DNA from: Escherichia phage wV7
Length of the DNA: 64,000 nucleotides
Sequence record: NC_019505.1
Direction: 5' to 3' (one strand)
Part shown: positions 1 to 63,989 of the stretch, piece by piece
Layout of the letters: every line of letters begins with the position of its first letter
Numbering within the stretch: the stretch's first letter is position 1
Notes under the pieces: model-generated
The model's input: only the letters and a program-made list of their open reading frames with translations
Told to the model about the DNA's origin: nothing
Database searches by the model: none
Position numbers and translations under genes: made by a program

Positions 1-1083
1 AAATTCGCTGCTTTGAAAGCAAGTGATACTCTTGAAGTCGGAACTATTTACACTCACTTCTTCCAGGACACTGGTACTGTGTATCTGCAAGCTACAGAAG
101 TTAAGCAAATTGATACTAGTGCAAATGATGCAGCTAAATTAGATGCTGAAATCAAGAAACAAATGGAAGCTGGTGTACTGGTAGAAATCGCTGAAGGTAT
201 GGCTACTTCTATCGCTGAACTTCAGGAAGGTTTCAATGGTTCTACCGATAACCCATGGAATGAAATGGGCTTCCGTATCGATAAACAAGTTATCGAAGCT
301 AAATCTCGCCAGCTGAAAGCTGCTTACTCTATCGAATTAGCACAAGACCTCCGCGCTGTTCATGGTATGGATGCTGATGCTGAACTGTCTGGTATTCTGG
401 CTACCGAAATTATGCTGGAAATCAACCGTGAAGTTGTTGATTGGATTAACTACTCAGCACAGGTTGGTAAATCTGGTATGACCCTGACTCCGGGTTCTAA
501 AGCTGGTGTATTTGACTTCCAGGACCCAATCGATATTCGTGGTGCTCGCTGGGCTGGTGAATCCTTTAAAGCTCTGTTGTTCCAGATTGATAAAGAAGCA
601 GTTGAAATCGCTCGTCAGACCGGTCGTGGTGAAGGTAACTTCATTATCGCTTCCCGTAACGTAGTTAACGTTCTGGCTTCAGTTGATACCGGCATTTCTT
701 ATGCTGCACAGGGTCTGGCAACTGGCTTTAACACTGATACTACCAAGTCAGTATTTGCTGGTGTTCTGGGTGGTAAATACCGTGTATATATCGACCAGTA
801 TGCTAAACAGGATTATTTCACTGTAGGTTATAAAGGTCCGAACGAAATGGATGCTGGTATTTACTACGCTCCATATGTAGCTCTGACTCCACTGCGTGGT
901 TCTGATCCGAAGAACTTCCAACCAGTAATGGGATTCAAAACTCGTTACGGTATCGGTATCAACCCATTTGCAGAATCCGCTGCTCAGGCTCCGGCTTCTC
1001 GCATTCAGAGCGGTATGCCTTCTATCCTGAACAGCCTTGGTAAGAACGCTTACTTCCGCCGTGTATATGTTAAAGGTATCTAA
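1..1083 (+). CDS. 23: Major capsid protein gp23, C-terminal ~360 codons (5' end lies outside the window)
   Basis: Frame is open from nt 1; protein contains the conserved T4 gp23 stretch DIYTHFFQ.TGTVYLQA and ends ...YFRRVYVKGI; followed by hairpin and late promoter as in T4. Confidence 0.93.
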   Translation, partial: KFAALKASDTLEVGTIYTHFFQDTGTVYLQATEVKQIDTSANDAAKLDAEIKKQMEAGVLVEIAEGMATSIAELQEGFNGSTDNPWNEMGFRIDKQVIEAKSRQLKAAYSIELAQDLRAVHGMDADAELSGILATEIMLEINREVVDWINYSAQVGKSGMTLTPGSKAGVFDFQDPIDIRGARWAGESFKALLFQIDKEAVEIARQTGRGEGNFIIASRNVVNVLASVDTGISYAAQGLATGFNTDTTKSVFAGVLGGKYRVYIDQYAKQDYFTVGYKGPNEMDAGIYYAPYVALTPLRGSDPKNFQPVMGFKTRYGIGINPFAESAAQAPASRIQSGMPSILNSLGKNAYFRRVYVKGI

Positions 1084-3974: not shown

Positions 3975-4043
3975 GTTATCGAGTTGGTGCCATTATATAC
4001 ATCATTTTCTGATTGTGTTTTGTGTGCTTTCAAAATGAAGAAA

Positions 4044-4060
4044 GGGGCCGAAGCCCCTTT
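4044..4060 (-). terminator. Hairpin GGGGC-CGAA-GCCCC 3' of hoc
   Basis: Perfect stem and tetraloop followed by a U-run on the minus strand. Confidence 0.65.
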
Positions 4061-4063
4061 CGA

Positions 4064-6228: not shown

Positions 6229-7740
6229 ATGACTGACATTAAAGTACATTTTTATGATTTTAGTCACGTGAGAATTGATTGTGAAGAAAGTACATTTCAT
6301 GAACTCCGTGATTTCTTTAGCTTCGAAGCTGATGGGTATCGTTTTAATCCGAAATACAAATATGGCCACTGGGATGGACGAATCCGTCTTTTAGATTATA
6401 ATCGTCTTCTTCCATTCGGCTTAGTCGGGCAAATTAAAAAGTTCTGTGATAACTTTGGCTATAAAGCCTGGATTGACCCACAAATTAACGAAAAAGAAGA
6501 ATTATCAAGAAAAGATTTTGATGAATGGCTTTCTAAATTAGAAATCTATTCAGGAAATAAAAGAATTGAACCACACTGGTATCAAAAAGATGCAGTGTTC
6601 GAAGGATTAGTTAATCGTCGTAGAATTCTTAATCTTCCAACATCCGCTGGTAAATCTTTAATTCAGGCTCTGCTCGCTCGGTATTATTTGGAAAATTACG
6701 AAGGTAAAATTCTTATCATTGTTCCAACAACTGCTCTAACAACTCAGATGGCTGATGACTTCGTTGACTATCGTTTATTCAGTCATGCAATGATAAAGAA
6801 AATTGGTGGCGGAGCATCAAAAGATGATAAATATAAAAATGATGCACCAGTCGTTGTTGGTACATGGCAAACTGTAGTTAAACAACCAAAAGAATGGTTC
6901 TCACAGTTTGGAATGATGATGAATGATGAATGTCATCTTGCTACAGGAAAAAGTATTTCATCTATCATATCAGGTTTAAATAACTGCATGTTCAAATTTG
7001 GTCTATCTGGTTCATTACGTGATGGCAAAGCCAATATCATGCAGTATGTTGGAATGTTTGGTGAAATATTTAAGCCAGTAACGACTTCTAAGTTAATGGA
7101 AGATGGACAAGTAACTGAGCTAAAAATTAATAGTATTTTTCTTCGCTATCCCGATGAGTTCACTACTAAATTAAAGGGAAAAACTTATCAAGAAGAAATA
7201 AAAATTATTACGGGGCTTAGTAAAAGAAATAAATGGATCGCTAAATTAGCTATTAAGCTTGCGCAAAAAGATGAAAACGCTTTTGTCATGTTTAAACATG
7301 TATCACATGGTAAAGCTATTTTCGATTTAATTAAAAATGAATACGATAAAGTTTATTACGTATCAGGGGAAGTTGATACCGAAACCCGCAATATAATGAA
7401 AACCTTAGCTGAAAATGGTAAAGGAATAATTATAGTAGCTAGTTATGGTGTATTTTCTACTGGTATTTCAGTTAAAAATCTGCATCACGTTGTTTTAGCG
7501 CACGGTGTTAAATCAAAAATCATTGTATTACAAACAATCGGTCGTGTATTACGTAAGCATGGTTCTAAGACAATAGCAACAGTCTGGGACCTCATAGATG
7601 ATTGTGGTGTTAAGCCAAAATCTGCTAATACGAAAAAGAAATATGTTCATTTGAACTATCTTTTAAAACACGGCATTGATCGTATTCAGCGCTACGCAGA
7701 TGAAAAATTTAATTACGTAATGAAAACAGTTAATTTATAA
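6229..7740 (+). CDS. uvsW: UvsW DNA/RNA helicase (SF2), 503 aa
   Basis: Walker A-like TSAGKS, DECH box (MMMNDECHLATG), Q-type motif; size and position as T4 uvsW. Confidence 0.92.
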   Translation: MTDIKVHFYDFSHVRIDCEESTFHELRDFFSFEADGYRFNPKYKYGHWDGRIRLLDYNRLLPFGLVGQIKKFCDNFGYKAWIDPQINEKEELSRKDFDEWLSKLEIYSGNKRIEPHWYQKDAVFEGLVNRRRILNLPTSAGKSLIQALLARYYLENYEGKILIIVPTTALTTQMADDFVDYRLFSHAMIKKIGGGASKDDKYKNDAPVVVGTWQTVVKQPKEWFSQFGMMMNDECHLATGKSISSIISGLNNCMFKFGLSGSLRDGKANIMQYVGMFGEIFKPVTTSKLMEDGQVTELKINSIFLRYPDEFTTKLKGKTYQEEIKIITGLSKRNKWIAKLAIKLAQKDENAFVMFKHVSHGKAIFDLIKNEYDKVYYVSGEVDTETRNIMKTLAENGKGIIIVASYGVFSTGISVKNLHHVVLAHGVKSKIIVLQTIGRVLRKHGSKTIATVWDLIDDCGVKPKSANTKKKYVHLNYLLKHGIDRIQRYADEKFNYVMKTVNL

Positions 7741-7752
7741 GGGCTTCGGCCC
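7741..7752 (+). other. GGGC-TTCG-GCCC tetraloop hairpin at the uvsW/uvsW.1 junction
   Basis: Read directly; sits between the uvsW stop and the uvsW.1 ribosome-binding site. Confidence 0.6.
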
Positions 7753-7765
7753 TTTGGAGAAAAAG

Positions 7766-20924: not shown

Positions 20925-20952
20925 TATTTATAAAATTAAAGGCCCGAAGGCC
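20925..20952 (-). promoter_or_regulatory. Late promoter TATAAATA (minus strand) upstream of alt, adjacent to hairpin GGCC-CGAA-GGCC
   Basis: Plus-strand TATTTATA about 20 nt upstream of the alt start; hairpin just beyond. Confidence 0.55.
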
Positions 20953-20953
20953 T

Positions 20954-21142
20954 TTAGTAATCTAGTGGTAAGAGAGTACGATATATTTCAAACTTTGGTC
21001 CTTTTTCATAGGCATCAAATGTTTCTGTAAATTTATTGTAAGCATATGCATCTACAAATTCGAGAATGACTTGTGATACAGAAGTAGAAACATCTCCACC
21101 TTCTTTTTGAGCAATGACAATTGTTTCTAAGTAAGCTTTCAT
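20954..21142 (-). CDS. Hypothetical small protein between ligase and alt
   Basis: 62 aa ORF; start overlaps the gene 30 stop. Confidence 0.5.
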   Translation of the reverse strand: MKAYLETIVIAQKEGGDVSTSVSQVILEFVDAYAYNKFTETFDAYEKGPKFEIYRTLLPLDY

Positions 21143-24840: not shown

Positions 24841-24879
24841 GTATTTTCCTCAGTAAGGGGCCGAAGCCCCTGTTTTATT

Positions 24880-25673: not shown

Positions 25674-25751
25674 ATACTATCACAAAGGAACCATACTGTA
25701 AACAACTTTGTGCAATCTTTGGAAAATAAAAAAGGACTCCCGAAGGAGTCC
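25674..25751 (-). promoter_or_regulatory. Terminator hairpin GGACTCC-CGAA-GGAGTCC followed by an early promoter (GTTTACA, 17 nt, TAGTAT)
   Basis: Minus strand: hairpin, ttttttattttcc..., gTTTACAgtatggttcctttgtgaTAGTAT, then the ribosome-binding site of ORF 25314..25646. Confidence 0.55.
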
Positions 25752-25756
25752 TCAAC

Positions 25757-44935: not shown

Positions 44936-45006
44936 ATGAACCTCGTTCAATTAGTGAGATTTCTATTATATACCATCCAAATCTTAAAGTAAACAAGTAT
45001 AAATAC

Positions 45007-45039: not shown

Positions 45040-48000
45040 ATGGCCGAGATTAAAAGAAAGTTCAGAGCAGAAGACGGTCTGGACGCAGGTGGTGATAAAA
45101 TAATCAACGTAGCTTTAGCTGATCGTACCGTAGGAACTGACGGTGTAAACGTTGATTACTTAATTCAAGAAAACACAGTTCAACAATATGATCCAACTCG
45201 TGGATATTTAAAAGATTTTGTAATCATTTATGATAACCGCTTTTGGGCTGCTATAAATGATATTCCAAAACCAGCAGGAGCTTTTAATAGCGTACGATGG
45301 AGAGCGTTACGCACTGATGCAAACTGGACAACTGTTTCGTCAGGACCCTATCAATTAAAATCAGGCGAATCGATTTCAGTTAACACCGCAGCGGGTAATG
45401 ACATTACATTTACTTTGCCATCTTCTCCAATTGATGGTGATACTATCGTTCTCCAAGATATTGGAGGAAAACCTGGAGTTAACCAGGTTTTAATTACAGC
45501 TCCGGTACAAAGCATTGTAAACTTTAGAGGTCAACAAGTACGCTCAGTACTAATGACTCATCCAAAATCACAGATAGTTTTAATTTTTAGTAATCGTCTG
45601 TGGCAAATGTATGTTGCTGATTATAGCAGAGAAGCGGCAGTTGTAACACCGGCAAGTCTTTATCAAGCGCAATCAAACGATTTTATCGTGCGTAGATTTA
45701 CTTCTGCTTCAGCAATTAATATTAAACTTCCTAGATTTGCTAATCATGGGGATATTATTAATTTTGTTGATTTAGATAAATTAAATCCGTTATATCATAC
45801 TATCGTTACTACATACGATGAAACTACTTCTGTACAAGAAGTTGGAACTCATTCCATTGAAGGTCGTACATCTATTGATGGTTTCTTGATGTTTGATGAT
45901 AATGAGAAATTGTGGAGATTGTTTGACGGGGATAGTAAAGCACGTTTACGCATTATAACGACTAATTCTAATATTCGTCCAAATGAAGAAGTCATGGTAT
46001 TTGGCGCGAATAATGGAACAACCCAAACAATTGAACTTCAGCTTCCAACTGATATTTCTATCGGTGATACTGTTAAGATTTCCATGAATTATATGAGAAA
46101 AGGACAAACAGTTAAAATCAAAGCTGCCGGTGAAGATAAAATTGCTTCTTCAGTTCAATTGCTGCAATTTCCAAAACGTTCAGAATACCCACCTGAAACT
46201 AAATGGGTGACTGTTCAAGAATTAGTTTTTAATGGCGAAACCAATTATGTTCCAGTTTTACAGCTTGCTTATATCGAAGATTCTGACGGAAAATATTGGG
46301 TTGTACAGCAAAACGTTCCAACTGTAGAAAGAGTAGACTCTTTAAATAATTCTACTAGAGCAAGATTAGGGGTAATTGCTTTAGCTACACAAGCTCAAGC
46401 TAATGCTGATTTAGAAAATTCTCCACAAAAAGAATTGGCAATTACTCCAGAAACGTTAGCTAATCGTACTGCTACAGAAACTCGTAGAGGTATTGCAAGA
46501 ATAGCAACTACTGCTCAAGTTAACCAGGATACTACATTCTCTTTTGCTGATGATATTATCATCACTCCTAAAAAGCTGAATGAAAGAACAGCTACTGAAA
46601 CTCGTAGGGGTGTCGCTGAAATTGCTACGCAACAGGAAACTAATACAGGTACTGATGATACGACAATCATCACTCCTAAAAAGCTTCAAGCTCGCCAAGG
46701 TTCTGAATCATTATCTGGTATTGTAACTTTTGTATCTACTGCAGGTGCTACTCCAGCTTCTAGCCGTGAATTAAATGGTACGAATGTTTATAATAAAAAC
46801 ACTAATAATTTAGTTGTTTCACCTAAAGCTTTGGATCAGTATAAAGCTACTCCAACACAGCAAGGTGCAGTAATTTTAGCAGTTGAAAGTGAAGTAATTG
46901 CTGGTCAAAGTCAAGAAGGATGGGCAAATGCTGTTGTAACTCCAGAAACGTTACACAAAAAGACATCAACTGATGGAAGAATTGGATTAATTGAAATTGC
47001 TACGCAAAGTGAAGTTAATACAGGAACTGATTATACTCGTGCAGTCACTCCTAAAACTTTAAATGACCGTAGAGCAACTGAAAGTTTAAGTGGTATAGCT
47101 GAAATTGCTACACAAGTTGAATTCGACGCGGGCGTCGACGATACTCGTATCTCTACACCATTAAAAATTAAAACCAGATTTAATAGTACTGATCGTACTT
47201 CTGTTGTTGCTCTATCTGGATTAGTTGAATCAGGAACTCTCTGGGACCATTATACCCTTAATATTCTTGAAGCAAACGAGACACAACGTGGTACACTTCG
47301 TGTAGCTACACAAGTCGAAGCTGCTGCAGGAACATTAGATAATGTTTTAATAACTCCTAAAAAGCTTTTAGGTACTAAATCTACTGAAGCGCAAGAAGGT
47401 GTTATTAAAGTTGCAACACAAACCGAAACTGTTGCTGGTACATCATCTAATACTGCTGTATCTCCAAAGAATTTAAAATGGATCGTGCAGAGTGAACCTA
47501 CTTGGGCAGCTACTACTACAGTAAGAGGCTTTGTTAAAACTTCATCTGGTTCAATTACATTCGTTGGTAATGATACAGCCGGTTCTACTCAGGACTTAGA
47601 GCTATACGAGAAAAATAGCTATGCAGTATCACCATACGAATTAAACCGTGTATTAGCAAATTATTTGCCATTAAAAGCAAAAGCTGCAGATAGTAATTTA
47701 TTGGATGGTCTAGATTCATCTCAGTTCATTCGTAGGGATATTGCACAGACGGTTAATGGTTCACTAACCTTAACCCAACAAACGAATCTGAGTGCCCCTC
47801 TTGTATCATCTAGTACTGCTACGTTTGGTGGATCAGTTTCGGCAAATAGTACATTAACTATTTCTAATACTGGAACGGCAACTCGTCTGATTTTTGAGAA
47901 AGGACCTCAAACTGGAACAAACCCAGCCCAAACGATGACTGTTAGAGTGTGGGGAAATCAATTTAGTGGGGAATTAGATACAACACGTTCTACCGTATTT

Positions 48001-48909
48001 GAAGTTAGTGATGAAACATCTAGTCATTTTTATTCTCAGCGCAATAAAGCTGGAAATATAACATTTAATATCAACGGTACAGTAACACCTATAAATGTTA
48101 ATGCTTCAGGAACATTGAATGCAAATGGTGTAGCAACATTTGGTAATTCAGTCACTGCAACTGGTGAAATTATTTCTCGAAGCGCAAATGCTTTCCGTGC
48201 TATTAACGGAAATTACGGTTTCATTGTTCGCAATGATGGATCAGTAACGAATTTTATGCTTACTGCATCGGGTGATCAGACTGGTGGATTTAATGGATTA
48301 CGCCCATTAGCTATTAATAATGCATCTGGCCAAGTAACGATTGGTGAAAGCTTAATCATTGCCAAAGGTGCTACTATAAATTCAGGTGGTTTGACTGTTA
48401 ACTCGAGAATTCGTTCTCAAGGTACTAAAACATCTGACTTATATACACGTGCGCCAACATCTGATACTGTAGGATTCTGGTCAATTGATATTAACGATTC
48501 AGCTACTTATAACCAGTTCCCAGGTTATTTTAAAATGGTTGAAAAAACTAATGAAGTGACTGGTCTTCCATATTTAGAACGTGGCGAAGAAGTTAAATCT
48601 CCTGGTACACTGACTCAGTTTGGTAACACACTTGATTCGCTTTACCAAGATTGGATTACTTATCCAACGACACCAGAAGCGCGTACCACTCGCTGGACAC
48701 GTACATGGCAGAAAACCAAAAACTCTTGGTCAAGTTTTGTTCAGGTATTTGATGGAGGTAACCCTCCTCAGCCATCTGATATTGGTGCTTTACCATCTGA
48801 TAATGCTATAATGGGGAATCTTACTATTCGTGATTTCTTACGAATTGGTAATGTTCGCATTATTCCTGACCCAGTGAATAAAACTGTTAAATTTGAATGG
48901 GTTGAATAA
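45040..48909 (+). CDS. 34: Long tail fibre proximal subunit gp34
   Basis: 1289 aa; repeated (T/E)ATETRRG...ATQ...ITPKKL motif units; first gene of the tail-fibre operon. Confidence 0.92.
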   Translation: MAEIKRKFRAEDGLDAGGDKIINVALADRTVGTDGVNVDYLIQENTVQQYDPTRGYLKDFVIIYDNRFWAAINDIPKPAGAFNSVRWRALRTDANWTTVSSGPYQLKSGESISVNTAAGNDITFTLPSSPIDGDTIVLQDIGGKPGVNQVLITAPVQSIVNFRGQQVRSVLMTHPKSQIVLIFSNRLWQMYVADYSREAAVVTPASLYQAQSNDFIVRRFTSASAINIKLPRFANHGDIINFVDLDKLNPLYHTIVTTYDETTSVQEVGTHSIEGRTSIDGFLMFDDNEKLWRLFDGDSKARLRIITTNSNIRPNEEVMVFGANNGTTQTIELQLPTDISIGDTVKISMNYMRKGQTVKIKAAGEDKIASSVQLLQFPKRSEYPPETKWVTVQELVFNGETNYVPVLQLAYIEDSDGKYWVVQQNVPTVERVDSLNNSTRARLGVIALATQAQANADLENSPQKELAITPETLANRTATETRRGIARIATTAQVNQDTTFSFADDIIITPKKLNERTATETRRGVAEIATQQETNTGTDDTTIITPKKLQARQGSESLSGIVTFVSTAGATPASSRELNGTNVYNKNTNNLVVSPKALDQYKATPTQQGAVILAVESEVIAGQSQEGWANAVVTPETLHKKTSTDGRIGLIEIATQSEVNTGTDYTRAVTPKTLNDRRATESLSGIAEIATQVEFDAGVDDTRISTPLKIKTRFNSTDRTSVVALSGLVESGTLWDHYTLNILEANETQRGTLRVATQVEAAAGTLDNVLITPKKLLGTKSTEAQEGVIKVATQTETVAGTSSNTAVSPKNLKWIVQSEPTWAATTTVRGFVKTSSGSITFVGNDTAGSTQDLELYEKNSYAVSPYELNRVLANYLPLKAKAADSNLLDGLDSSQFIRRDIAQTVNGSLTLTQQTNLSAPLVSSSTATFGGSVSANSTLTISNTGTATRLIFEKGPQTGTNPAQTMTVRVWGNQFSGELDTTRSTVFEVSDETSSHFYSQRNKAGNITFNINGTVTPINVNASGTLNANGVATFGNSVTATGEIISRSANAFRAINGNYGFIVRNDGSVTNFMLTASGDQTGGFNGLRPLAINNASGQVTIGESLIIAKGATINSGGLTVNSRIRSQGTKTSDLYTRAPTSDTVGFWSIDINDSATYNQFPGYFKMVEKTNEVTGLPYLERGEEVKSPGTLTQFGNTLDSLYQDWITYPTTPEARTTRWTRTWQKTKNSWSSFVQVFDGGNPPQPSDIGALPSDNAIMGNLTIRDFLRIGNVRIIPDPVNKTVKFEWVE

Positions 48910-48917
48910 GAGGTATT

Positions 48918-50033
48918 ATGGAAAAATTTATGGCAAAGTTTGGACAAGGATATGTCCAAACGCCATTTTTATCGGAAAGTAATTCAGTAAGATATAAAAT
49001 AAGTATAGCGGGTTCTTGCCCGCTTTCTACAGCAGGACCATATGTCAAATTTCAGGATAATCCTATCGGAAGTCAAACATTTAACGCAGGTCTTCATTTA
49101 AGAGTTTTTGACCCTTCTACAGGAGCATTGGTTGATAGTAAGTCATATGTTTTTTCTACTTCAAATGATACAACATCTGCTGCTTTTGTTAGTTTCATGA
49201 ACTCTTTGACGAATAATAGACTTGTTGCTATATTAACTAGCGGAAAGGTTAATTTTCCTCCTGAGGTAGTATCTTGGCTAAGAGTTGCGGGAACGTCTGC
49301 TTTTCCATCTGATTCTATATTGTCAAGATTTGACGTATCATATGCTGCCTTTTATACTTCTTCTAAAAGAGCTATTGCATTAGAACATGTTAAACTGAGT
49401 AATAGAAAAAGCACAGATGATTATCAAACTATTTTAGATGTTGTATTTGACAGTTTAGAAGACGTTGGAGCTACCGGGTTTCCAAGAAGAACATATGAAA
49501 GCGTTGAGCAGTTTATGTCAGCGGTTGGTGGAACTAATAACGAAATTGCACGTCTACCAACTTCATCCGCGATAAGTAAACTTTCTGACTACAATTTAAT
49601 TCCTGGCGATGTTCTTTATCTTAAAGCACAACTATATGCTGATGCCGATTTACTTGCTCTTGGAACTACAAATATATCCATCCGTTTTTATGATGAATCG
49701 GATGGATATATTTCTTCAACACATGCTGAGTTTACTGGACAAGCTGAGTCATGGGAATTAAAGGAAGACTATGTAGTTGTTCCTGAAAATGCAGTAGGAT
49801 TTACGATATATGCACAAAGAACTGCACAAGCAGGTCAAGGTGGCATGAGGAATTTAAGTTTTTCTGAAGTATCAAGAAATGGCGGAATTTCAAAACCTGC
49901 AGAATTTGGCGTCAATGGTATTCGAGTTAATTATGTCTGTGAATCTGCTTCACCTCCAGATATAATGGTATTTCCTACACAAGCATCGTCTAAAACTGGT
50001 AAAGTGTTTGGACAAGAATTTAGAGAAGTTTAA
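48918..50033 (+). CDS. 35: Long tail fibre hinge protein gp35
   Basis: 371 aa in the gene 35 position. Confidence 0.85.
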   Translation: MEKFMAKFGQGYVQTPFLSESNSVRYKISIAGSCPLSTAGPYVKFQDNPIGSQTFNAGLHLRVFDPSTGALVDSKSYVFSTSNDTTSAAFVSFMNSLTNNRLVAILTSGKVNFPPEVVSWLRVAGTSAFPSDSILSRFDVSYAAFYTSSKRAIALEHVKLSNRKSTDDYQTILDVVFDSLEDVGATGFPRRTYESVEQFMSAVGGTNNEIARLPTSSAISKLSDYNLIPGDVLYLKAQLYADADLLALGTTNISIRFYDESDGYISSTHAEFTGQAESWELKEDYVVVPENAVGFTIYAQRTAQAGQGGMRNLSFSEVSRNGGISKPAEFGVNGIRVNYVCESASPPDIMVFPTQASSKTGKVFGQEFREV

Positions 50034-50038
50034 ATTGA

Positions 50039-50061
50039 GGGAGCCTTCGGGTTCCCTTTTT
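50039..50061 (+). terminator. Hairpin GGGAGCC-TTCG-GGTTCCC plus T-run after gene 35
   Basis: Stem with one G-U pair, UUCG loop, T5 run. Confidence 0.6.
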
Positions 50062-50064
50062 CTT

Positions 50065-50072
50065 TATAAATA
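50065..50072 (+). promoter_or_regulatory. Late promoter TATAAATA upstream of gene 36
   Basis: Exact motif about 24 nt upstream of the gene 36 ATG. Confidence 0.65.
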
Positions 50073-50095
50073 CTATTAAAATAAAGGGGCATACA

Positions 50096-50752
50096 ATGGC
50101 TGATTTAAAAGTAGGTTCAACAACCGGAGGCTCTGTCATTTGGCATCAAGGAAATTTTCCATTGAATCCAGCCGGTGACGATGTACTCTATAAATCATTT
50201 AAAATATATTCAGAATATAATAAACCACAAGCTGCTGATAACGATTTCGTTTCTAAAGCTAATGGCGGTACTTATTTAAATAAAGTAATTTTTAATAAAG
50301 GAATGACTGTTCCTGGCGCAGGGTCAGGTGATAATGGTATTTTTGCTGGTCCTGGTGATAGTGCCACGTATGATACTACAAATATGGATATTGTTTCGTG
50401 GTATGGTATTGGTTTTAAATCATCACAAGGAACAGCAGGTAGAACTGTAGTAATTAACACACGAAATGGAGATATTAGCTCAAAGGGCGTAATTGAAGCA
50501 TCACAAATCCGTGTAACTTCGTTATCACCAGTAAATAATTATGACCTTACGCGGAAAGATTATGTTGATGGAGCAATAAATATTGTTACAGCAAACGCAA
50601 ACTCTAGGGTATTACGCTCTGGAGACACTATGACAGGAAATTTAACTGCGCCAAACCTTTTTTCACAGAATCCTGCATCTCAACCCTCGCATGTTCCACG
50701 ATTTGACCAAATTGTTATTAAGGATTCTGTTCAAGATTTCGGCTATTATTAA
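50096..50752 (+). CDS. 36: Long tail fibre distal connector gp36
   Basis: 218 aa in the gene 36 position. Confidence 0.85.
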   Translation: MADLKVGSTTGGSVIWHQGNFPLNPAGDDVLYKSFKIYSEYNKPQAADNDFVSKANGGTYLNKVIFNKGMTVPGAGSGDNGIFAGPGDSATYDTTNMDIVSWYGIGFKSSQGTAGRTVVINTRNGDISSKGVIEASQIRVTSLSPVNNYDLTRKDYVDGAINIVTANANSRVLRSGDTMTGNLTAPNLFSQNPASQPSHVPRFDQIVIKDSVQDFGYY

Positions 50753-50760
50753 GAGGACTT

Positions 50761-53700
50761 ATGGCTACTTTAAAACAAATACAATTTAAAAGAAGCAAAA
50801 CTGCAGGAGCACGTCCTGCCGCTTCAGTATTAGCCGAAGGTGAATTGGCTATAAACTTAAAAGACCGTGTACTTTTTACTAAAGATGACCAAGGAAATAT
50901 TATTGATCTGGGTTTTGCTAAAGGCGGTAGTATTGACGGGAATGTTATTCATACAGGCAATTATAACCAAACTGGCGATTATACTTTAAATGGCACATTC
51001 ACTCAGACAGGTAATTTTAATTTAACTGGTATTGCTCGAGTAACTCGTGATATTATTGCCGCCGGGCAGATTATGACTGAAGGCGGAGAACTTATTACAA
51101 AAAGTTCAGGTACAGCGCATGTTCGTTTTTTCGATGGCAATAGTCGCGAACGTGGAATCATTTATGCCCCGGCTAATGATGGTTTAACTACACAAGTACT
51201 TAATATCAGGGTTCAAGACTACGCCGCTGGTAGCGAAAGCACTTATGCATTTTCAGGCAGTGGCCTATTTACTTCACCTGAAGTATCAGCATGGAAATCT
51301 ATTTCGTCTCCACAAATTCTGACCGATAAAGTTATTACAAATGGGAAGAAGACAGGCGATTATGACATCTATTCATTAGCAAATAACACCCCATTATCTG
51401 AAAGCACTACTGCTATTAATCATCTTCGTGTCATGCGTAATGCCGTTGGTTCTGGTATTTTCCATGAAGTTAAAGATAATGATGGGATAACCTGGTATGC
51501 CGGTGACGGGTTGGAGGCTTATCTTTGGTCGTTTACGTGGTCCGGTGGGTTGAAAGCGGGTCATTCTATTTCTATAGGTACCCCAGGCGGTCCAAAAGGA
51601 TATTCTGAATTAGGAACTGCTTCGATTGCTCTTGGTGATAATGACACCGGGTTAAAATGGCACCATGATGGATATTATTTCAGCGTCAATAATGGAACGA
51701 AAACATTTTTATTTAGTCCTAGCGAAACAACTAGCCTAAGAAAATTTGTAGCTGGATATTCTACTAACGGAACCGATTTAACTACTCCTCCGACTGAAAA
51801 CTATGCTCTTGCTACTGTCGTGACATATCACGATAATAACGCGTTTGGAGATGGTCAAACTCTTTTAGGATATTATCAAGGCGGTAACTATCATCACTAT
51901 TTCCGCGGTAAGGGTACCACAAACATTAATACTCATGGCGGTTTGTTAGTTACTCCAGGTAATATTGACGTTATTGGTGGTTCTGTTAATATCGATGGTA
52001 GAAATAATTCTTCTACACTGATGTTTAGAGGTAACACAACTGGTAGTAGTTCAGTTGATAATATGACAATTTCCGTTTGGGGCAATACGTTTACTAATCC
52101 TAGTGAAGGTACCCGTAAAAATGTTATGGAAATTTCTGATGCAACTAGCTGGATGAGCTATATTCAACGAACAACTGCAGGTAAAGTTGAATCGGTTATA
52201 AATGGCACCCAGATTGTTAATGAAAACTTGACCGTAGTAAAAAATGCTACATTTGATGGTACAATCAGCGCAGCAGGTGAAATTTCATCTGGTGCAGTGA
52301 ATGCGCTTCGCATTTGGAACGCAGATTATGGAGCCATTTTTAGACGTTCAGAAGGTAGTCTTCATATTATTCCAACTGCTTATGGTGAAGGCAAAAATGG
52401 TGATATCGGTCCACTTCGCCCGTTTAGTATGGCTTTAGATACTGGTAAAGTTACTATTCCAGATTTACAATCAAGTTACAATACGTTTGCTGCTAACGGT
52501 TATATTAAATTTGTTGGTCATGGAGCGGGTGCAGGTGGTTATGATATTCAGTATTCACAAGCTGCTCCTATTTTCCAAGAAATCGATGATGCTGCTGTAA
52601 GCAAATATTATCCTATTGTTAAACAGAAGTTTTTAAATGGTAAAGCTGTCTGGTCTTTGGGTACTGAAATTAATTCAGGTACATTTGTTTTACATCATTT
52701 GAAAGAAGATGGTTCACAAGGCCATACATCAAGATTTAATGCTGATGGTACAGTTAATTTCCCCGATAATGTTCAAGTCGGCGGCGGTGAAGCTACTATT
52801 GCTAGAAACGGTAATATCTTCTCTGATATTTGGAAAACATTTACTTCTGCCGGAGATACTACAAATATTCACGATGCGATAGCTACTCGTGTTGCCAAAG
52901 AAGGCGATACGATGACTGGCAAATTAATCGTTAGAAGAGGCTCTGACGCTATTAACATTGCTGCCGATGAAAATGATTCTTGCTATTTACTTGGAACATC
53001 GGGTGGAGCGAATTCATGGTACATCGGTAAAGGAGGAGCAGATGACACTGCTTCATTTTATAATTTCAAAACTACCGCAGGAATTACTCTTAATAGTGTT
53101 GGTGATATTGATTTTAACGTCAAAAATCAAGCTACTGCAGCTTCATTAAATTTTTATCGTTTATATTTAAATGGAAGACAATGGACAGCTACACAAGGTC
53201 ACGGCTATAATAATCAATGGCAAACAGAAGCCCCATTCTTCGTTGACTTTGGTGAATCTGTTCCGAAAGATAGTTATATGCCTATAATTAAAGGAAGAAG
53301 CCAAATCATTAACGAAGGATATGCCACAAAGGCAGATTTTGGTATTATTCGATTGGGTGGAAATGCTACTTGGGGAAATGCAGTAATTCGTGTTGGTTCT
53401 GCGGAAAGCGGAGATAGCAGTCATCCTAATGCAATATTTGTGTTTCAGGCTAATGGTGATTTTAAAGCTCCGGTTGGCCTTCGTGCTGGTGTTAACTTGG
53501 GCGTCGGCACAATTCCAGTATGGGGCGGAGCATCTATCGCCATCGGGGATGATGATACCGGTTTAGTTCATGGCGGCGATGGTCGAATTAATATGTATGC
53601 TAACTCGCAGCATATAGCATCATGGGGCACGATGTATCAATCTCATCCAGGCCTTTGGGATTCAAATGGAGCTTTTTGGACAGAAGTTGGCAAAGCAATT

Positions 53701-54105
53701 ATTTCTCATGGCCATTTAGTTCAGGCGAATGACAGCTATTCAACGTATGTCCGCGATGTTTATGTCCGCTCTGATATTCGTGTTAAAAAGGACCTAGTTA
53801 AATTTGAAAATGCTTCTGAGAAGCTTTCAAAAATTAATGGTTACACTTATATGCAGAAGCGAGGCCTAGATGAAGAAGGTAATCAGAAATGGGAACCAAA
53901 CGCTGGGTTAATTGCTCAAGAAGTTCAAGCTATTTTACCTGAATTGGTTGAAGGCGATCAGGATAGTGAAGCTTTACTTCGTTTGAACTATAACGGTGTA
54001 ATTGGTTTAAATACAGCTGCAATCAATGAGCATACTGCAGAAATTGCAGAACTTAAGTCAGAGATTGAAGAGCTTAAAAAATTAGTTAAATCATTGTTAA
54101 AATAA
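50761..54105 (+). CDS. 37: Long tail fibre distal subunit gp37 with C-terminal chaperone-like module
   Basis: 1114 aa; N-terminus shares motifs with gp34; C-terminus ...[15 protein letters not shown]...[22 protein letters not shown]. Confidence 0.9.
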
Positions 54106-54110
54106 AATGA

Positions 54111-54124
54111 GGGGCTTCGGCCCC
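54111..54124 (+). other. GGGGC-TTCG-GCCCC hairpin between genes 37 and 38
   Basis: Perfect stem and UUCG loop, followed by ribosome-binding site GGAG and the gene 38 ATG. Confidence 0.6.
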
Positions 54125-54136
54125 TTGGAGGTTTAT

Positions 54137-54931
54137 ATGGCAGTTGAAGGACCGTGGGTAGGATGGTCTGCGAGGGTACAAACTGGAGACCCTTGGATGG
54201 GTGGTGCCGCGCTGAGATTGAGAATGGGAATTCCGTTTTGGATGAGTAATATGATAGGTCGATCTGTTGAAGTAATTCACACCCTTGGAGCGGACCATAA
54301 CTTCAATGGTCAATGGTTCCGAGATAGATGTTTTGAGGCAGGTAGTGCACCTATAGTGTTTAATATTACCGGAAATTTGGTATCATATTCTAGAGACGTT
54401 CCTTTATTCTTCATGTACGGAGATACACCTAATGAATATGTTCAGTTGAATATTGGTGGCGGCGTCCATATGTGGGGTAGAGGTGGACAAGGTGGATGGA
54501 CTCATTCCGGCGGAGATGGTAATGGTCAACAAGGTGGTCATTGTATTCAAAATGACATCGGTGGACGATTAAGAATTAATAACGGTGGAGTAATTTGTGG
54601 TGGAGGTGGAGGTGGAGGTGGTATCGCTTATCGTCCTCACTCTGGTGCAAAATGGCAAGATATTGGTGGTGGTGGAGGAAGACCATTTGGCCCAGGAGGA
54701 GGCGGAGGTTATTCCGGCGGCGCAGCTTCTTATGATGGCCCAGGAGGTGGTTATAATTATGGTAATGCTCACTCTGGCCAGGGTGGTGATGCTGGCGCAA
54801 ATGGACAAAATGCCTGGCATGATGGCGGTAAAGTTCTAAAAGTTGGAGCTGGTGGCGCTGCCGGATATGCTGTTATAGGATCAGCTCCAACATGGCAAAA
54901 TGTTGGAGTAATATATGGTCCAAGGGTATAA
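54137..54931 (+). CDS. 38: gp38 receptor-recognising adhesin (T2-type, glycine-rich motifs)
   Basis: [10 protein letters not shown]... start after a ribosome-binding site (track ORF starts at 54107); conserved N-terminal block [32 protein letters not shown]; poly-Gly islands separating variable segments. Confidence 0.88.
54597..54625 (+). repeat. GGT/GGA trinucleotide tract encoding poly-glycine in gp38
   Basis: ggtggaggtggaggtggaggtggt read directly; further GGN runs at about 54660-54740. Confidence 0.8.
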
Positions 54932-54962
54932 TTTTGAATAAATATCCTTAAAAGGAGGGTCT

Positions 54963-55625
54963 ATGGCAGCACCTAGAATATCATTTTCGCCCTCTGATAT
55001 TCTATTTGGTGTTCTAGATCGCTTGTTCAAAGATAACGCTACCGGGAAAGTTCTTGCTTCCCGGGTAGCTGTCGTAATTCTTTTATTTATGATGGCGATT
55101 GTTTGGTATAGGGGAGATAGTTTCTTTGAGTACTATAAGCAATCAAAGTATGAAACATACAGTGAAATTATTGAAAAGGAAAGAAACGCACGCTTTGAAT
55201 CTGTCGCCCTGGAACAACTCCAGATAGTTCACATATCATCTGAGGCAGACTTTAGTGCGGTGTATTCTTTCCGCCCTAAAAACTTAAACTATTTTGTTGA
55301 TATTATAGCATATGAAGGAAAATTACCTTCAACAATAAGTGAAAAATCACTTGGAGGATATCCTGTTGATAAAACTATGGATGAATATACAGTTCATTTA
55401 AATGGACGTCATTATTATTCCAACTCAAAATTTGCTTTTTTACCAACTAAAAAGCCTACTCCCGAAATAAACTACATGTACAGTTGTCCATATTTTAATT
55501 TGGATAACATCTATGCTGGAACAATAACCATGTACTGGTATAGAAATGATCATATAAGTAATGACCGCCTTGAATCAATATGTTCTCAATTCGTCGATGA
55601 GGGTTTTCTTATCTTCTTGGGTTAA
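54963..55625 (+). CDS. t: Holin t
   Basis: 220 aa; MAAPRISFSPSDILFGVLDRLFKDNATGKVLASRVAVVILLFMMAIVWY, single transmembrane segment, large C-terminal domain. Confidence 0.9.
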   Translation: MAAPRISFSPSDILFGVLDRLFKDNATGKVLASRVAVVILLFMMAIVWYRGDSFFEYYKQSKYETYSEIIEKERNARFESVALEQLQIVHISSEADFSAVYSFRPKNLNYFVDIIAYEGKLPSTISEKSLGGYPVDKTMDEYTVHLNGRHYYSNSKFAFLPTKKPTPEINYMYSCPYFNLDNIYAGTITMYWYRNDHISNDRLESICSQFVDEGFLIFLG

Positions 55626-55805
55626 TTCAGAAACAATTTTACGGAATGAATTCTGATTTAATTTTCTACCTTCATGCGTTACTCCAATCTCATTCAGAAA
55701 TGCAATAAAATTAGCACGATTCTCAACAATATCTTCTCTGGAAAATTTAATCAAAATAGACGCAACAGTAATAATTTCACGAACTGTATCAATATTTTTA
55801 TTCAT
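55575..55805 (-). CDS. asiA: AsiA anti-sigma-70 factor (76 aa, C-terminus differs from recalled T4 AsiA)
   Basis: MNKNIDTVREIITVASILIKFSREDIVENRANFIAFLNEIGVTHEGRKLNQNSFRKIVSELTQEDKKTLIDE, then LRTY*. Confidence 0.85.
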   Translation of the reverse strand: MNKNIDTVREIITVASILIKFSREDIVENRANFIAFLNEIGVTHEGRKLNQNSFRKIVSELTQEDKKTLIDELRTY

Positions 55806-60162: not shown

Positions 60163-60240
60163 TTAGCGTCCGAAGACGCCTTTAGTTTTAAAATTATTAC
60201 GATAGAACTGCATCACATGTTCGTTATGGAAATTACTCAT
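60163..60240 (-). CDS. stp: Stp peptide (25 aa), activator of host PrrC anticodon nuclease
   Basis: [25 protein letters not shown] closely matches the recalled T4 Stp; TAATG overlap with the ndd stop. Confidence 0.7.
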
Positions 60241-62791: not shown

Positions 62792-62810
62792 AATTCACCT
62801 TAAAACAAAA

Positions 62811-62822
62811 GGGCCGAAGCCC
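62811..62822 (-). other. GGGC-TTCG-GCCC hairpin (minus-strand reading) upstream of ORF 62462..62791
   Basis: Same 22-nt element as at 63039-63050. Confidence 0.55.
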
Positions 62823-62827
62823 TTATT

Positions 62828-63022: not shown

Positions 63023-63038
63023 AATTTTCCTTAGTTAA

Positions 63039-63050
63039 GGGCCGAAGCCC
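63039..63050 (-). other. GGGC-TTCG-GCCC hairpin immediately 3' of rIIB
   Basis: Abuts the rIIB stop codon. Confidence 0.55.
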
Positions 63051-63989
63051 TTATTTAAATTGTTCAGTAACGTCTTCAATTACTTCGTATTGGCAGGTAC
63101 GCATTTTAGCGTCGTTGTAATCAATCGGAATTGATACTACATCACGAGGATGAACTTTAACTTTTACAACTCGGCTGGTTGAACCACCGAAGTGACGAAT
63201 ATAAGATTTAGAACACACATGCAGACCACGAGAACAAGTTTGTGTATCATCGTCATTCACACGAGTACGCGGCATTTTAACTACTTTACCAGGACTGTTA
63301 TCAAAGGTATTTGAGTGACAGTCAAAGTAATTATTGCGAACTACTTTCCAAGCATAGAAGTAACCATCTTCTGTAATTTCAATATCGTTTGCTACCAAGA
63401 AATCAAAAAGTCGAGATACCGCTTTCTGGCTTGGGTTTTCCAGCAGATTTTCCAAGAACGGAAAATAAAATTCAAAGTTTTCGCCTTTTTCCATCGAATC
63501 AAGAATACGATCAACCAAACCAGACCGCAATTCAATATTTTGATAGAATAAGCTTCCACCTTCAATTCGAACATCGCCGGAAATATATTTTTCAACAGCG
63601 CGACGAACATTAATTTTTTGTGCCGCTTCTTCCAGCTTATCCGCTACAAGCAGATTGAGAATTTCCTGGAAGTTTGAATGAGTATTAGGTGTTGCATTAT
63701 AAGTTACACCATCGACAGTAATCGAAATGAATTTTTTAGATGCATTCCAAATAATGTCAGATTTAGTAACTGGAGCAATAACTGCATCGCTATTAACTTT
63801 AACTGTAATATCACCGCTAATAGTAACTTTAGAGCGTTTAGCTTCTTCAGCATTTTTCAAAACACGACGGATTGTATCAACCGATACACCTTGCCAATCA
63901 GCCAATTCCTGCTGAGTATAATTACCGCTTGAATACAGTTTAACAATTTCAGCTTGTTCGTTTTTGGTCAGGCATTTAATATTGTACAT
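63051..63989 (-). CDS. rIIB: rIIB protein
   Basis: 312 aa, MYNIKCLTKNEQAEIVKLYSSGNYTQQELADWQGVSVDTIRR...; size as recalled for T4 rIIB. Confidence 0.9.
   Translation of the reverse strand: MYNIKCLTKNEQAEIVKLYSSGNYTQQELADWQGVSVDTIRRVLKNAEEAKRSKVTISGDITVKVNSDAVIAPVTKSDIIWNASKKFISITVDGVTYNATPNTHSNFQEILNLLVADKLEEAAQKINVRRAVEKYISGDVRIEGGSLFYQNIELRSGLVDRILDSMEKGENFEFYFPFLENLLENPSQKAVSRLFDFLVANDIEITEDGYFYAWKVVRNNYFDCHSNTFDNSPGKVVKMPRTRVNDDDTQTCSRGLHVCSKSYIRHFGGSTSRVVKVKVHPRDVVSIPIDYNDAKMRTCQYEVIEDVTEQFK

Follow-up and report, generated by a model that had tools for sequence, protein, structure and literature searches.

The gene 37–gene 38 region of Escherichia phage wV7: a tail-fibre chaperone domain, a junction hairpin and a glycine-rich adhesin with OmpA as its predicted receptor

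Organisation of the Locus

The window considered here is the whole analysed stretch of 64,000 nucleotides from Escherichia phage wV7 (NC_019505.1), and all positions refer to it. Gene 37, which encodes the distal subunit of the long tail fibre, is followed in the same direction by gene 38, the product of which is an adhesin of the fibre tip, and a C(UUCG)G hairpin and a Shine-Dalgarno sequence lie between the two genes (Table 1). The first approximately 650 amino acids of gp37 show 35% identity to gp37 of T4. A single late promoter (TATAAATA at 50065) apparently serves genes 36, 37, 38 and t; sites of the late-promoter consensus were found in the tail-fibre region only at 44998 and 50065. Farther downstream, at 55588, an apparent 87-bp deletion shortens asiA as well as the holin gene t; it was seen in none of the phage records searched.

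Table 1. Features of the gene 37–gene 38 region, with positions in the window and the basis of each assignment.
Feature	Position	Strand	Basis or remark
Gene 37, distal long-tail-fibre subunit, 1114 aa + stop	50761..54105	+	Open reading frame; near-identical records annotate large distal long tail fibre subunit
DVYVR (gp37 residues 999–1003), predicted new C-terminus of mature gp37 and gp38 docking strand	53755..53769	+	Aligned with DLNVS of S16 and DVYIR of fPS phages, directly preceding the autocleavage site (PMC7917993)
Peptidase_S74 intramolecular-chaperone domain, gp37 residues 1004–1114, 111 aa	53770..54102	+	Pfam PF13884, 6f45_A match, profile hits
Ser1004; Lys1009	53770-53772; 53785-53787	+	Dyad within the gp37 chaperone domain
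In-frame ATG, one base past the gp37 stop, probably unused	54107..54109	+	Without Shine-Dalgarno; common to TP7 and Sa45lw
C(UUCG)G tetraloop hairpin AGGGGC-UUCG-GCCCCU	54110..54125	+	With G.U pairs extends to 54108-54127
Gene 38 Shine-Dalgarno GGAGG, 5 nt before ATG 54137	54127..54131	+	Read from the sequence
Gene 38, tail-fibre tip adhesin, 264 aa + stop	54137..54931	+	Pfam GP38 and Gp38_N; PDB matches; 'tail fiber adhesin' in KP869105
gp38 N-terminal attachment domain, residues 1–40, with W7, W20, W35	54137..54256	+	Pfam Gp38_N
gp38 variable segment, residues 121–132	54497..54532	+	Low conservation among 29 adhesins
gp38 variable segment, residues 163–176, between the G8 and G5 runs	54623..54664	+	Low conservation among 29 adhesins; PMC12032242
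gp38 variable segment, residues 192–202	54710..54742	+	Low conservation among 29 adhesins; D200V, G201A vs AV119
gp38 variable segment, residues 206–215	54752..54781	+	Low conservation among 29 adhesins; N207Q vs AV119
gp38 variable segment, residues 218–238, with D218 = AV119 D217 (predicted contact)	54788..54850	+	Low conservation among 29 adhesins; PMC12032242

The C-Terminal Chaperone Domain of gp37

In the initial annotation, about 110 residues at the end of gp37 were said to resemble the intramolecular-chaperone and autoprocessing domains of other phage fibres, and similarity to such domains was indeed found by profile methods. The Pfam family PF13884 (Peptidase_S74, 'Chaperone of endosialidase') matches residues 1004–1063 with E 1.2e-12 and 48.3 bits, the curated cut-off being 22 bits, and the alignment with S16 gp37 (6f45_A, E 7e-34) runs through the whole domain of 111 residues. 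A profile search of the PDB with the gp37 C-terminus gave the autoprocessing domain of MYRF (7dc3, E 2.6e-9), a phage tail-fibre chain (8jov, E 1.1e-5) and the chaperone domain of phage GA-1 (3gud, E 6e-4). The domain occupies the extreme C-terminus of the protein (1004–1114 of 1114), and the part upstream of it is homologous to the beta-helix of S16 gp37. Membership of this region in the Peptidase_S74 intramolecular chaperones is thus supported by the sequence comparisons.

The catalytic serine and lysine of the SDxxxK motif, five residues apart, are present at the start of the domain as S1004 and K1009 in SDIRVK. This motif is aligned with ADLRAK of MYRF 7dc3, with ASDERLK of 8jov and with SDERHK, the first residues of 3gud, the chain of which begins at the aligned serine; S, D and K are nearly invariant among the homologues. 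Together with the preceding residues, DVYVR|SDIRVKK of gp37 is aligned with the autocleavage site DLNVS|SDRRIKK of S16. In the latter phage, the last 113 residues of gp37 autocleave at DLNVS^SDRRIKK and expose the docking site for gp38 (PMC7917993), and gp37 of T2 and T6 is likewise cleaved and then capped by gp38 (PMC3157838). By analogy, R1003|S1004 is the predicted maturation site of gp37.

Structure prediction, proposed as a check of the domain, was carried out and gave little. AF2 monomer models of the gp37 C-terminus had a pLDDT of 51.8 when a single sequence was used and of 65.2 (pTM 0.51) with an alignment of 11 sequences, and a Foldseek comparison of the monomer model with the PDB found nothing below E 0.6, the ribosomal proteins and MarR regulators returned being noise. 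A homologue search with the C-terminal 125 amino acids yielded 10 proteins, mostly near-identical, and the alignment was therefore too shallow for a good model. A long C-terminal helix (about residues 1077–1113) is seen in the low-confidence model. As a model of the monomer is uninformative for an obligately trimeric domain, its assignment was based on the profile evidence.

The gp38 Adhesin

The product of gene 38 belongs to the adhesins of the fibre tip, as had been suggested. The family GP38 (PF05268) covers residues 45–264 with E 9.7e-69 (232 bits) and Gp38_N (PF21721) covers residues 1–40 with E 2.3e-19 (69.5 bits), the cut-off being 25 bits for each. The best PDB match is gp38 of PP01 (9v85, 1e-73), and gp38 of S16 (6f45_D) was matched at 3e-48. 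A chaperone-only gp38 of the T4 type was ruled out along with these matches, BLASTP having found no similarity to the T4 gp38 chaperone (best E 0.8, 14% identity over 50 amino acids). The name 'T2-type' is appropriate for the architecture of the protein but not for the closeness of its sequence, since it is 42.5% identical to T2 gp38 versus 95% to the AV119 adhesin.

The open reading frame listed by the program begins at ATG 54107, and this codon was rejected as the start of gp38: it is unconserved, it has no Shine-Dalgarno sequence, and TAATAAG or another sequence is found in its place in the relatives other than TP7 and Sa45lw. Position 54137 was taken as the start because Gp38_N matches from the first residue (M54137), public records annotate it so and ATG 54107 is mostly absent in relatives.

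Within the N-terminal attachment domain, W7, W20 and W35 are invariant among 12 diverse gp38 adhesins, including those of S16 and T2. In S16, the three tryptophans act as prongs inserting into gp37, and the gp38 monomer sits on the gp37 trimer (PMC6851490). Judging from the structures of the S16 and PP01 proteins and from the genetics of AV119 and FL08, gp38 would be present in the virion as a monomer that caps the gp37 trimer and binds an outer-membrane protein.

The conserved N-terminal block is followed by poly-Gly islands separating variable segments, an arrangement first noticed in the initial annotation and recovered in an alignment of 29 adhesin sequences, where the glycine runs do not vary and the five segments that they separate show poor conservation. 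The runs include G8 at 155–162, G5 at 177–181 and G5 at 187–191, in addition to shorter ones, and a C-terminal motif of 11 residues is also conserved. Residues R166–A171 of the segment 163–176 are equivalent to R165–A170 of AV119 and FL08, predicted to contact OmpA. The same segment contains K172, which is unique to the window among the 29 aligned adhesins (K172N in comparison with gp38 of TP7, Sa45lw, AV119, FL08 and WFK). This lysine in the main predicted contact loop is a candidate host-range substitution.

Prediction of the Receptor

The delimitation of the five segments was accompanied by a prediction of the receptor. The identity of gp38 is 94.7% to the AV119 protein and 92.4% to that of FL08, both being 'type 1' adhesins that were experimentally found to be OmpA-dependent (PMC12032242; Lutz et al. 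2025). Because of this 95% and 92% identity to adhesins requiring OmpA, OmpA is predicted as the receptor, and in our opinion it is probably the right one, gp38 being a putative type 1 adhesin. The predicted contacts R165, H167–A170 and D217 of AV119 are kept as R166, H168–A171 and D218.

Another receptor, such as Tsx, OmpC or an O157-specific variant, might be bound owing to substitutions in the variable segments, and we regard this as rather unlikely. Of the 14 differences from AV119, 10 are in or beside variable segments; among them are P167, which occupies a predicted contact position, and K172, which is specific to the window, both belonging to the loop expected to make the main contact. 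According to PMC12892980 (citing the Ox2 work) and PMC3157838, the receptor of gp38 can be switched by single changes in variable segments. Moreover, Tsx binders are phylogenetic neighbours of the type 1 OmpA adhesins (PMC12032242), and the nearest relatives of the window were isolated on O157:H7, like the OmpC-binding PP01. Against this stand the 92–95% identity to two adhesins experimentally requiring OmpA and the retention of most predicted contact residues, whereas gp38 of PP01, with other variable segments, is 68% identical.

The Junction Hairpin: Structure and Conservation

The hairpin is situated where it had been reported, between the gp37 stop and the ribosome-binding site of gp38. 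It starts 4 nt past the stop codon (54103-54105) and ends 1 nt before GGAGG, and it consists of six Watson-Crick pairs, or eight if G.U pairs are counted, with a free energy of −11 to −13 kcal/mol. An UNCG-type hairpin is also found at the 37/38 junction of T2, T4, S16, PP01 and about 20 IMG/VR loci, the stems being different. In 5 of 7 stem pairs both sides change, 92% of cells pair, and none of 500 shuffles matches this covariation, although these counts lean towards structure because the alignment was anchored on the loop by the analyst. The hairpin was missing in the most distant gp38-encoding loci (L042, L045-L051) and is therefore not obligatory for the gp37–gp38 module.

A shuffle test of folding energy in the 81-nt context of the hairpin was not significant (z = −0.93), so that its support comes from comparison between phages and not from thermodynamics; a search of Rfam at the hairpin gave no match. 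From these comparisons we conclude that the hairpin exists and is under selection. It is no peculiarity of this junction but one of about 14 sense-oriented C(UNCG)G hairpins in the window, which are nearly all intergenic and have the loop in the sense of the flanking genes. Perfect hairpins of at least 5 bp with a TNCG loop occur nine times on the + strand of the window, compared with 0.96 expected from shuffles.

Intercistronic C(UUCG)G hairpins are a classic feature of T4, and CUUCGG hairpins in its mRNA were reportedly described by Tuerk and co-workers in 1988 (see also PMC4371310).

The Junction Hairpin: Possible Functions

The hairpin may act in the sense RNA by folding quickly, so that the ribosome-binding site next to it stays free of structure and the cistrons on either side are shielded from decay that is exonucleolytic or depends on the 5' end. 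This is a tentative preference, held with less than even confidence. Gene 38, beginning 31 nt past the gp37 stop, has its own strong Shine-Dalgarno at ideal spacing, and an SD-like motif stands 0–3 nt past the hairpin in all T2-type relatives. Comparison in silico of the accessibility of the Shine-Dalgarno and AUG in the wild type and in arm-disrupted mutants gave an outcome that varied with the sequence context. In T4, the equivalent hairpin is experimentally required for translation of gene 38 (PMC3014915). A role as a strong terminator or as a coupling device is unlikely.

As a partial intrinsic terminator or attenuator, the hairpin would lessen read-through into 38 and t and help to set a 3:1 ratio of gp37 to gp38, and this we consider improbable. 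It is GC-rich and very stable, the related record MK373775 annotates it as 'putative transcriptional terminator, -10.10', a distant relative (L043) has UUUUCUU after the hairpin, and the stoichiometry of a gp38 monomer on a gp37 trimer agrees with such a role. However, the + strand continues past the stem as UUGGAGGUUUAU, which is not a U-tract, and no call was made there by the terminator scan; a Rho-independent terminator on the + strand was rejected on account of this tail. There is also no late-promoter consensus between the hairpin and t, so the holin would rely on read-through, and the same layout of a hairpin followed by a Shine-Dalgarno is found at many other gene pairs for which there is no stoichiometric logic.

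The C(UUCG)G hairpin is kept at the 37/38 boundary although the flanking modules have been replaced (T4-type versus T2-type tips) and the Shine-Dalgarno has moved from its 5' to its 3' side. This retention could mean a function of its own, either tuning of the gp38:gp37 output (1:3) or service as a conserved border or landing pad at which adhesin cassettes are exchanged by recombination, a thought to which we assign distinctly low probability.

Coupling of gene 38 translation to that of gene 37, with ribosomes terminating at 54105 melting the hairpin and thereby controlling gp38 initiation, is judged quite improbable. A terminating ribosome must unwind the 5' arm because the stop is 4 nt from the stem, and in T4 the equivalent hairpin controls initiation of gene 38 as a split ribosome-binding site (PMC3014915). 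In the window, however, the Shine-Dalgarno is 3' of the hairpin, has the ideal distance of 5 nt and, according to prediction, stays largely unpaired next to the folded hairpin, so the hairpin neither masks nor bridges the ribosome-binding site. The geometry of the T4 split site is absent, since GGAGG, 5 nt from the AUG, is on the 3' and not on the 5' side of the hairpin, and this type of site was rejected. The translational coupling envisaged in the initial annotation is therefore unsupported, gp38 having a strong Shine-Dalgarno of its own.

Termination of antisense early transcripts from the convergent asiA side is very improbable and was rejected: asiA and t are convergent and the scan called a terminator-like element on the − strand (stem, then CATTTTATTT), but the conserved loop is UNCG only in the + sense and CGAA on the − strand, the T-rich − strand tail is unconserved in T2 and in one group of relatives (L025/L027/L033), and all other such hairpins of the window are oriented with the flanking genes.

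Proposed Mode of Action

Summarizing these data, it may be stated with high confidence that the module is the standard receptor-recognition end of a T-even phage of the T2/S16 type (Tequatrovirus). By homology, gp37 would fold as a trimeric beta-helical fibre with the aid of its own C-terminal chaperone, and once the trimer is formed, the Ser1004/Lys1009 dyad would cut the Arg1003–Ser1004 bond. Departure of the chaperone would expose the DVYVR tip, on which one gp38 monomer is expected to dock via its N-terminal helical bundle with W7, W20 and W35. The Gly-rich motifs of gp38 may form a polyglycine-II sandwich, and its five variable loops would contact an outer-membrane protein, most probably OmpA.

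The practical value of these results is small and consists in the prediction of OmpA as the receptor and of the gp37 maturation site for a genome resembling that of an O157-typing phage.

Comparison with Known Phages

The module with its chaperone domain and junction hairpin, as well as the principle of the variable loops, has already been described for T2, T6, S16, PP01 and related phages, and none of this is new. The closest record is KP869105 (E. coli O157 typing phage 7, TP7), which differs from the window by two bases over 7.6 kb (48000-55580) and is 99.9% identical in nucleotides over 53400-55000. Sa45lw (MK977694) and KIT03 (AP018932) are similarly close, the identity of the three phages across the module being 99.4–99.9%, and gp38 is annotated in them as a tail fibre adhesin. 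The TP7 protein differs from gp38 of the window by one amino acid (K172N) and that of Sa45lw by three.

In the Gly motifs, the adhesins of AV119 and FL08 match gp38 of the window, and their variable segments are almost the same. They differ by 14 and 20 substitutions, respectively, most of which are located in variable segments; V166P (AV119 numbering) and N-to-K at position 172 of the window protein are among them. The junction hairpin and Shine-Dalgarno of FL08 are identical to those of the window, and AV119 differs by one deleted C of the stem. In PP01 (PDB 9V85; PMC12892980), the junction is identical and the N-terminal and beta-helix parts of gp38 are nearly so, but the overall identity is 68%, the variable segments show no relationship, and OmpC of O157 serves as the receptor.

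The gp37–gp38 tip of S16 (PDB 6F45; Dunne et al. 2018) has the architecture predicted for the window: gp37 consists of a beta-helix and a C-terminal chaperone domain that is cut off before SDxxxKK, while gp38 combines an attachment domain with three tryptophans, a beta-helix and a polyglycine-II sandwich bearing variable loops. The C-terminal 194 amino acids of gp37 align with the S16 protein at E 4e-45 and gp38 at E 3e-48. The S16 junction likewise has a UNCG hairpin, with a different stem and the loop UACG. In contrast, S16 gp38 is 45.5% identical, has other variable loops and binds OmpC of Salmonella.

The chaperones of the endosialidase type, such as the GA-1 neck appendage (3GUD) and the MYRF ICA (7DC3), share with gp37 the Pfam family, the Ser-x4-Lys dyad, a C-terminal location in a trimeric fibre and, apparently, a coiled-coil helix at the end. 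Their similarity is distant (profile E 6e-4 to 2.6e-9), and in contrast to them, the cleavage of gp37 would make a docking site for a separate adhesin.

In T4, a nearly identical split-site hairpin, AGAGGGGC-UUCG-GCCCUUCU, occupies the same place, past the stop of gene 37 and ahead of the start of gene 38 (PMC3014915). The T4 Shine-Dalgarno is on the 5' side of this hairpin and is carried by it to within 5 nt of the AUG, whereas that of the window is on the 3' side. The S74 domain is missing from T4 gp37, and the gp38 of that phage is a chaperone unrelated to the adhesin.

Tail-Fibre Locus and Nearest Genomes

The region is part of the T-even phage late tail-fibre operon, and the remaining expected Pfam families were found across the locus beside the two entered in the table of features. 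By megablast, positions 53400-55000 are 99.9% identical to KP869105 (E. coli O157 typing phage 7, TP7), 99.5% to phage Sa45lw and 99.4% to phage KIT03, in all of which a 'tail fiber adhesin' is annotated 3' of a 'large distal long tail fiber subunit'. Because of these identities, and because only two positions differ from KP869105 over 48000-55580 (7.6 kb), the sequence is a near-copy of annotated published genomes. Residues 58-112 of the hinge connector gp35 gave an unexpected match to Pfam PF15711 ILEI ('Interleukin-like EMT inducer'; E 1.4e-7, 32.3 bits, cut-off 27).

Features of the tail-fibre locus and related elements of the window
Feature	Position	Strand	Remarks
late-promoter consensus	44998	+	before gene 34
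gene 35	48918..50033	+	ORF
late-promoter consensus	50065	+	before gene 36
gene 36	50096..50752	+	ORF; Pfam Phage_T4_gp36
gene 37	50761..54105	+	ORF, 1114 aa
gene 37/38 hairpin	54110-54125	+	AGGGGC-UUCG-GCCCCU
gene 38	54107 to 54931 (mechanical ORF)	+	ORF; 264-aa reading starts at ATG 54137
gp38 variable segments	residues 121-132, 163-176, 192-202, 206-215, 218-238		29-adhesin alignment
holin gene t	54963..55625	+	ORF; Pfam Phage_holin_T
asiA	55575..55805	-	convergent with t
GC-rich C(UUCG)G hairpins	1097-1116, 7739-7754, 50037-50058	+	intergenic
GC-rich C(UUCG)G hairpins	4040-4061, 20937-20956, 24856-24871, 25732-25753, 60165-60180, 62809-62824, 63036-63053	-	intergenic

Genes 36-37-38-t are probably read as one late transcript, since the T4 late-promoter consensus TATAAATA, present on the + strand before genes 34 and 36, has no further exact match from 50072 up to where t ends. 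The gap separating genes 35 and 36 holds a terminator-like 9-bp UUCG hairpin with TTTCTTT behind it, and then the late-promoter consensus at 50065 (50037-50072 in all).

Relative to KP869105, 87 bp are missing where the 3' ends of t and asiA converge, the junction lying at about 55588/55589. The missing segment encodes T4-like C-terminal ends of both genes, and T4 has the same longer t C-terminus. The holin ends in ...ESICSQFVDEGFLIFLG instead of ...ESICSQAARILGRAK (also given as ...SQFVDEGFLIFLG instead of ...SQAARILGRAK), and AsiA has 76 aa instead of 90, its last 18 residues, FNEGFEGVYRYLEMYTNK, being lost. The contiguous junction occurs in 0 records among 50,697 phage genomes. The deletion could belong to a real mutant or could be an assembly artefact; a viable phage carrying it is plausible, because AsiA without its C-terminal 17 residues was reported to be still active (PMC2988021).

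C-Terminus of gp37 and Architecture of gp38

The chaperone-like character ascribed to the gp37 C-terminus in the initial annotation is borne out by profile searches. A Pfam Peptidase_S74 match ('Chaperone of endosialidase') covers residues 1004-1063 with 48.3 bits and E 1.2e-12 (cut-off 22 bits), and the last 194 residues align, up to the very end of the protein, to the S16 gp37 construct (PDB 6F45, E 4e-45). A profile built from 11 homologues also reached three more remote structures: 7dc3 (autoprocessing domain of MYRF, E 2.6e-9), 8jov (phage tail fibre, E 1.1e-5) and 3gud (neck-appendage chaperone domain of phage GA-1, E 6e-4), the first residue of the last chain being exactly the one aligned with Ser1004. 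Structure prediction, proposed along with that annotation, gave no confirmation: the AF2 models had pLDDT of 52 and 65 and Foldseek gave no significant match, so support for the fold comes from the sequence profiles only.

S1004, D1005 and K1009 are near-invariant in homologues. In S16, gp37 cuts off its own last 113 residues at DLNVS^SDRRIKK, exposing the docking surface for gp38 (PMC7917993). The window has DVYVR^SDIRVKK at the corresponding site, and we therefore predict a cut at R1003/S1004 that would release 111 residues.

Further upstream, gp37 residues 450-556 form a Gp34_trimer-like domain (E 5e-8). The alignment with T4 gp37 is confined to the first ~650 residues (35% identity), the distal half being unrelated, a mosaicism typical of fibres. 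Several database entries matching the C-terminus are 170-210-aa 'tail fiber domain-containing protein [Escherichia coli]' records, most on ~166-kb contigs, and seem to be incomplete gene calls from phage genomes under the host's name.

The protein gp38 carries Pfam Gp38_N (residues 1-40) and GP38 (residues 45-264, E 9.7e-69), and hits the adhesin structures of PP01 (9v85, E 1e-73) and S16 (6f45_D, E 3e-48); no similarity links it to the T4 gp38 chaperone. Its W7, W20, W35 and glycine runs are invariant in a 12-sequence alignment; in S16, the three tryptophans are prongs inserted into the gp37 tip (PMC6851490). In an alignment of 29 adhesins, conservation is poor in five segments set between the glycine motifs. 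The initial annotation had also placed variable segments between Gly islands, and the layout of motifs and variable segments is the one known from Henning's group, Trojet et al. (PMC3157838) and Dunne et al. One base past the gp37 stop (TAAAATG) there is an in-frame ATG, 54107-54109, without a Shine-Dalgarno sequence, the use of which would add ten residues read through the hairpin; it is common to TP7 and Sa45lw, and most relatives have TAATAAG there.

Receptor Prediction

OmpA is the most likely receptor, and we hold this with moderate confidence. The closest of the reference adhesins tabulated belong to AV119 and FL08, which Lutz et al. 2025 (PMC12032242) class as OmpA-dependent phages of 'type 1', and the contact residues predicted there (R165, V166, H167, S168, G169, A170 and D217) correspond to R166, P167, H168, S169, G170, A171 and D218 in the window, all kept save V-to-P. 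Confidence is limited by the 14 differences from AV119, most of them in or beside variable loops. One of the 14, Lys172 (A at 54652), sits in the ten-residue variable loop predicted to contact OmpA, is one of the two differences from KP869105, occurs in none of the other 28 aligned adhesins, and is Asn in all close relatives examined (TP7, Sa45lw, AV119, FL08, WFK). Receptor switches through minor changes in variable segments are known, and K172 is a possible host-range substitution.

Adhesins and gene 37/38 junction hairpins, all at the same position, in related phages
Source	gp38 identity to window	Receptor	Junction hairpin
AV119	94.7%	OmpA (experimental)	
FL08	92.4%	OmpA (experimental)	identical to window
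WFK	87%	none given in sources	identical to window
PP01	68%	OmpC	identical to window
S16	45.5%	Salmonella OmpC	GAGCC-UACG-GGCUC
T2	42.5%	FadL (PMC3157838)	AGAGGGC-UUCG-GCCCUCU
T4			AGAGGGGC-UUCG-GCCCUUCU
IMG/VR loci			GGGCC/GGCCC, GGGGC-AUU-GCCCC, GGGGGC-AAC-GCCCCC, GGGGCUC-CGAA-GAGCCC

Junction Hairpin

The hairpin lies between the gp37 stop, 4 nt upstream, and the gene 38 Shine-Dalgarno sequence GGAGG, 1 nt downstream and 5 nt from the ATG, as had been noticed at first. Folded in isolation it has -11 to -13 kcal/mol; its 81-nt context is no more stable than shuffles. The decisive evidence is the phage-to-phage comparison. When 11 distinct tetraloop versions are aligned on their loops, pairing holds in 92% of cells and both sides have changed in five of seven pairs, a covariation equalled by 0 of 500 shuffles and by no slid register. 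In the most distant gp38 loci the hairpin is absent.

The element is not unique to its junction. The window has about 14 GC-rich hairpins of the C(UNCG)G type, almost all of them between genes and with a loop that reads UNCG in the direction of the adjacent genes; one of them (24856-24871, -) repeats the 16-nt junction sequence exactly. The listed C(UUCG)G members always have the orientation of the flanking genes, often with a Shine-Dalgarno sequence directly downstream, within a few bases in several cases (e.g., 7739-7754, 24856-24871). Tuerk et al. 1988 reportedly described such hairpins in T4 mRNA. It was in T4 mRNA that the class first drew notice (PMC4371310).

As to function, we tentatively favour, at somewhat less than even chances, a generic RNA-level role: the hairpin would act as a fast-folding insulator keeping the adjacent ribosome-binding site unstructured, and as a barrier to RNA decay. 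This preference follows from the difficulties of the other readings. An attenuator is unlikely, even though the exact element is annotated as 'putative terminator' in a Mosigvirus record, as efficient termination at 54125 would leave the holin gene short of transcript and no U-tract follows the stem on the + strand. Coupling of gene 38 translation to gene 37 termination, suggested initially, now seems improbable: the Shine-Dalgarno sequence comes after the hairpin and is ideally spaced, and coupling is not needed. An antisense terminator is very improbable, because the conserved loop is UNCG in the + sense only.

Comparison with Known Systems

In T4, the equivalent hairpin stands between the Shine-Dalgarno sequence and the AUG and is required for gene 38 translation (PMC3014915), whereas in the window the Shine-Dalgarno sequence follows the hairpin, so the T4 mechanism does not apply and the generic role is preferred. 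The hairpin is kept when the T4-type module is exchanged for the T2-type one, with the Shine-Dalgarno sequence now on its other side; this could point, at low probability, to a separate function or to a boundary for recombination, and the persistence is only a mildly new point. The module itself is already known, with direct published precedent for every element and a sequence nearly identical to deposited genomes.
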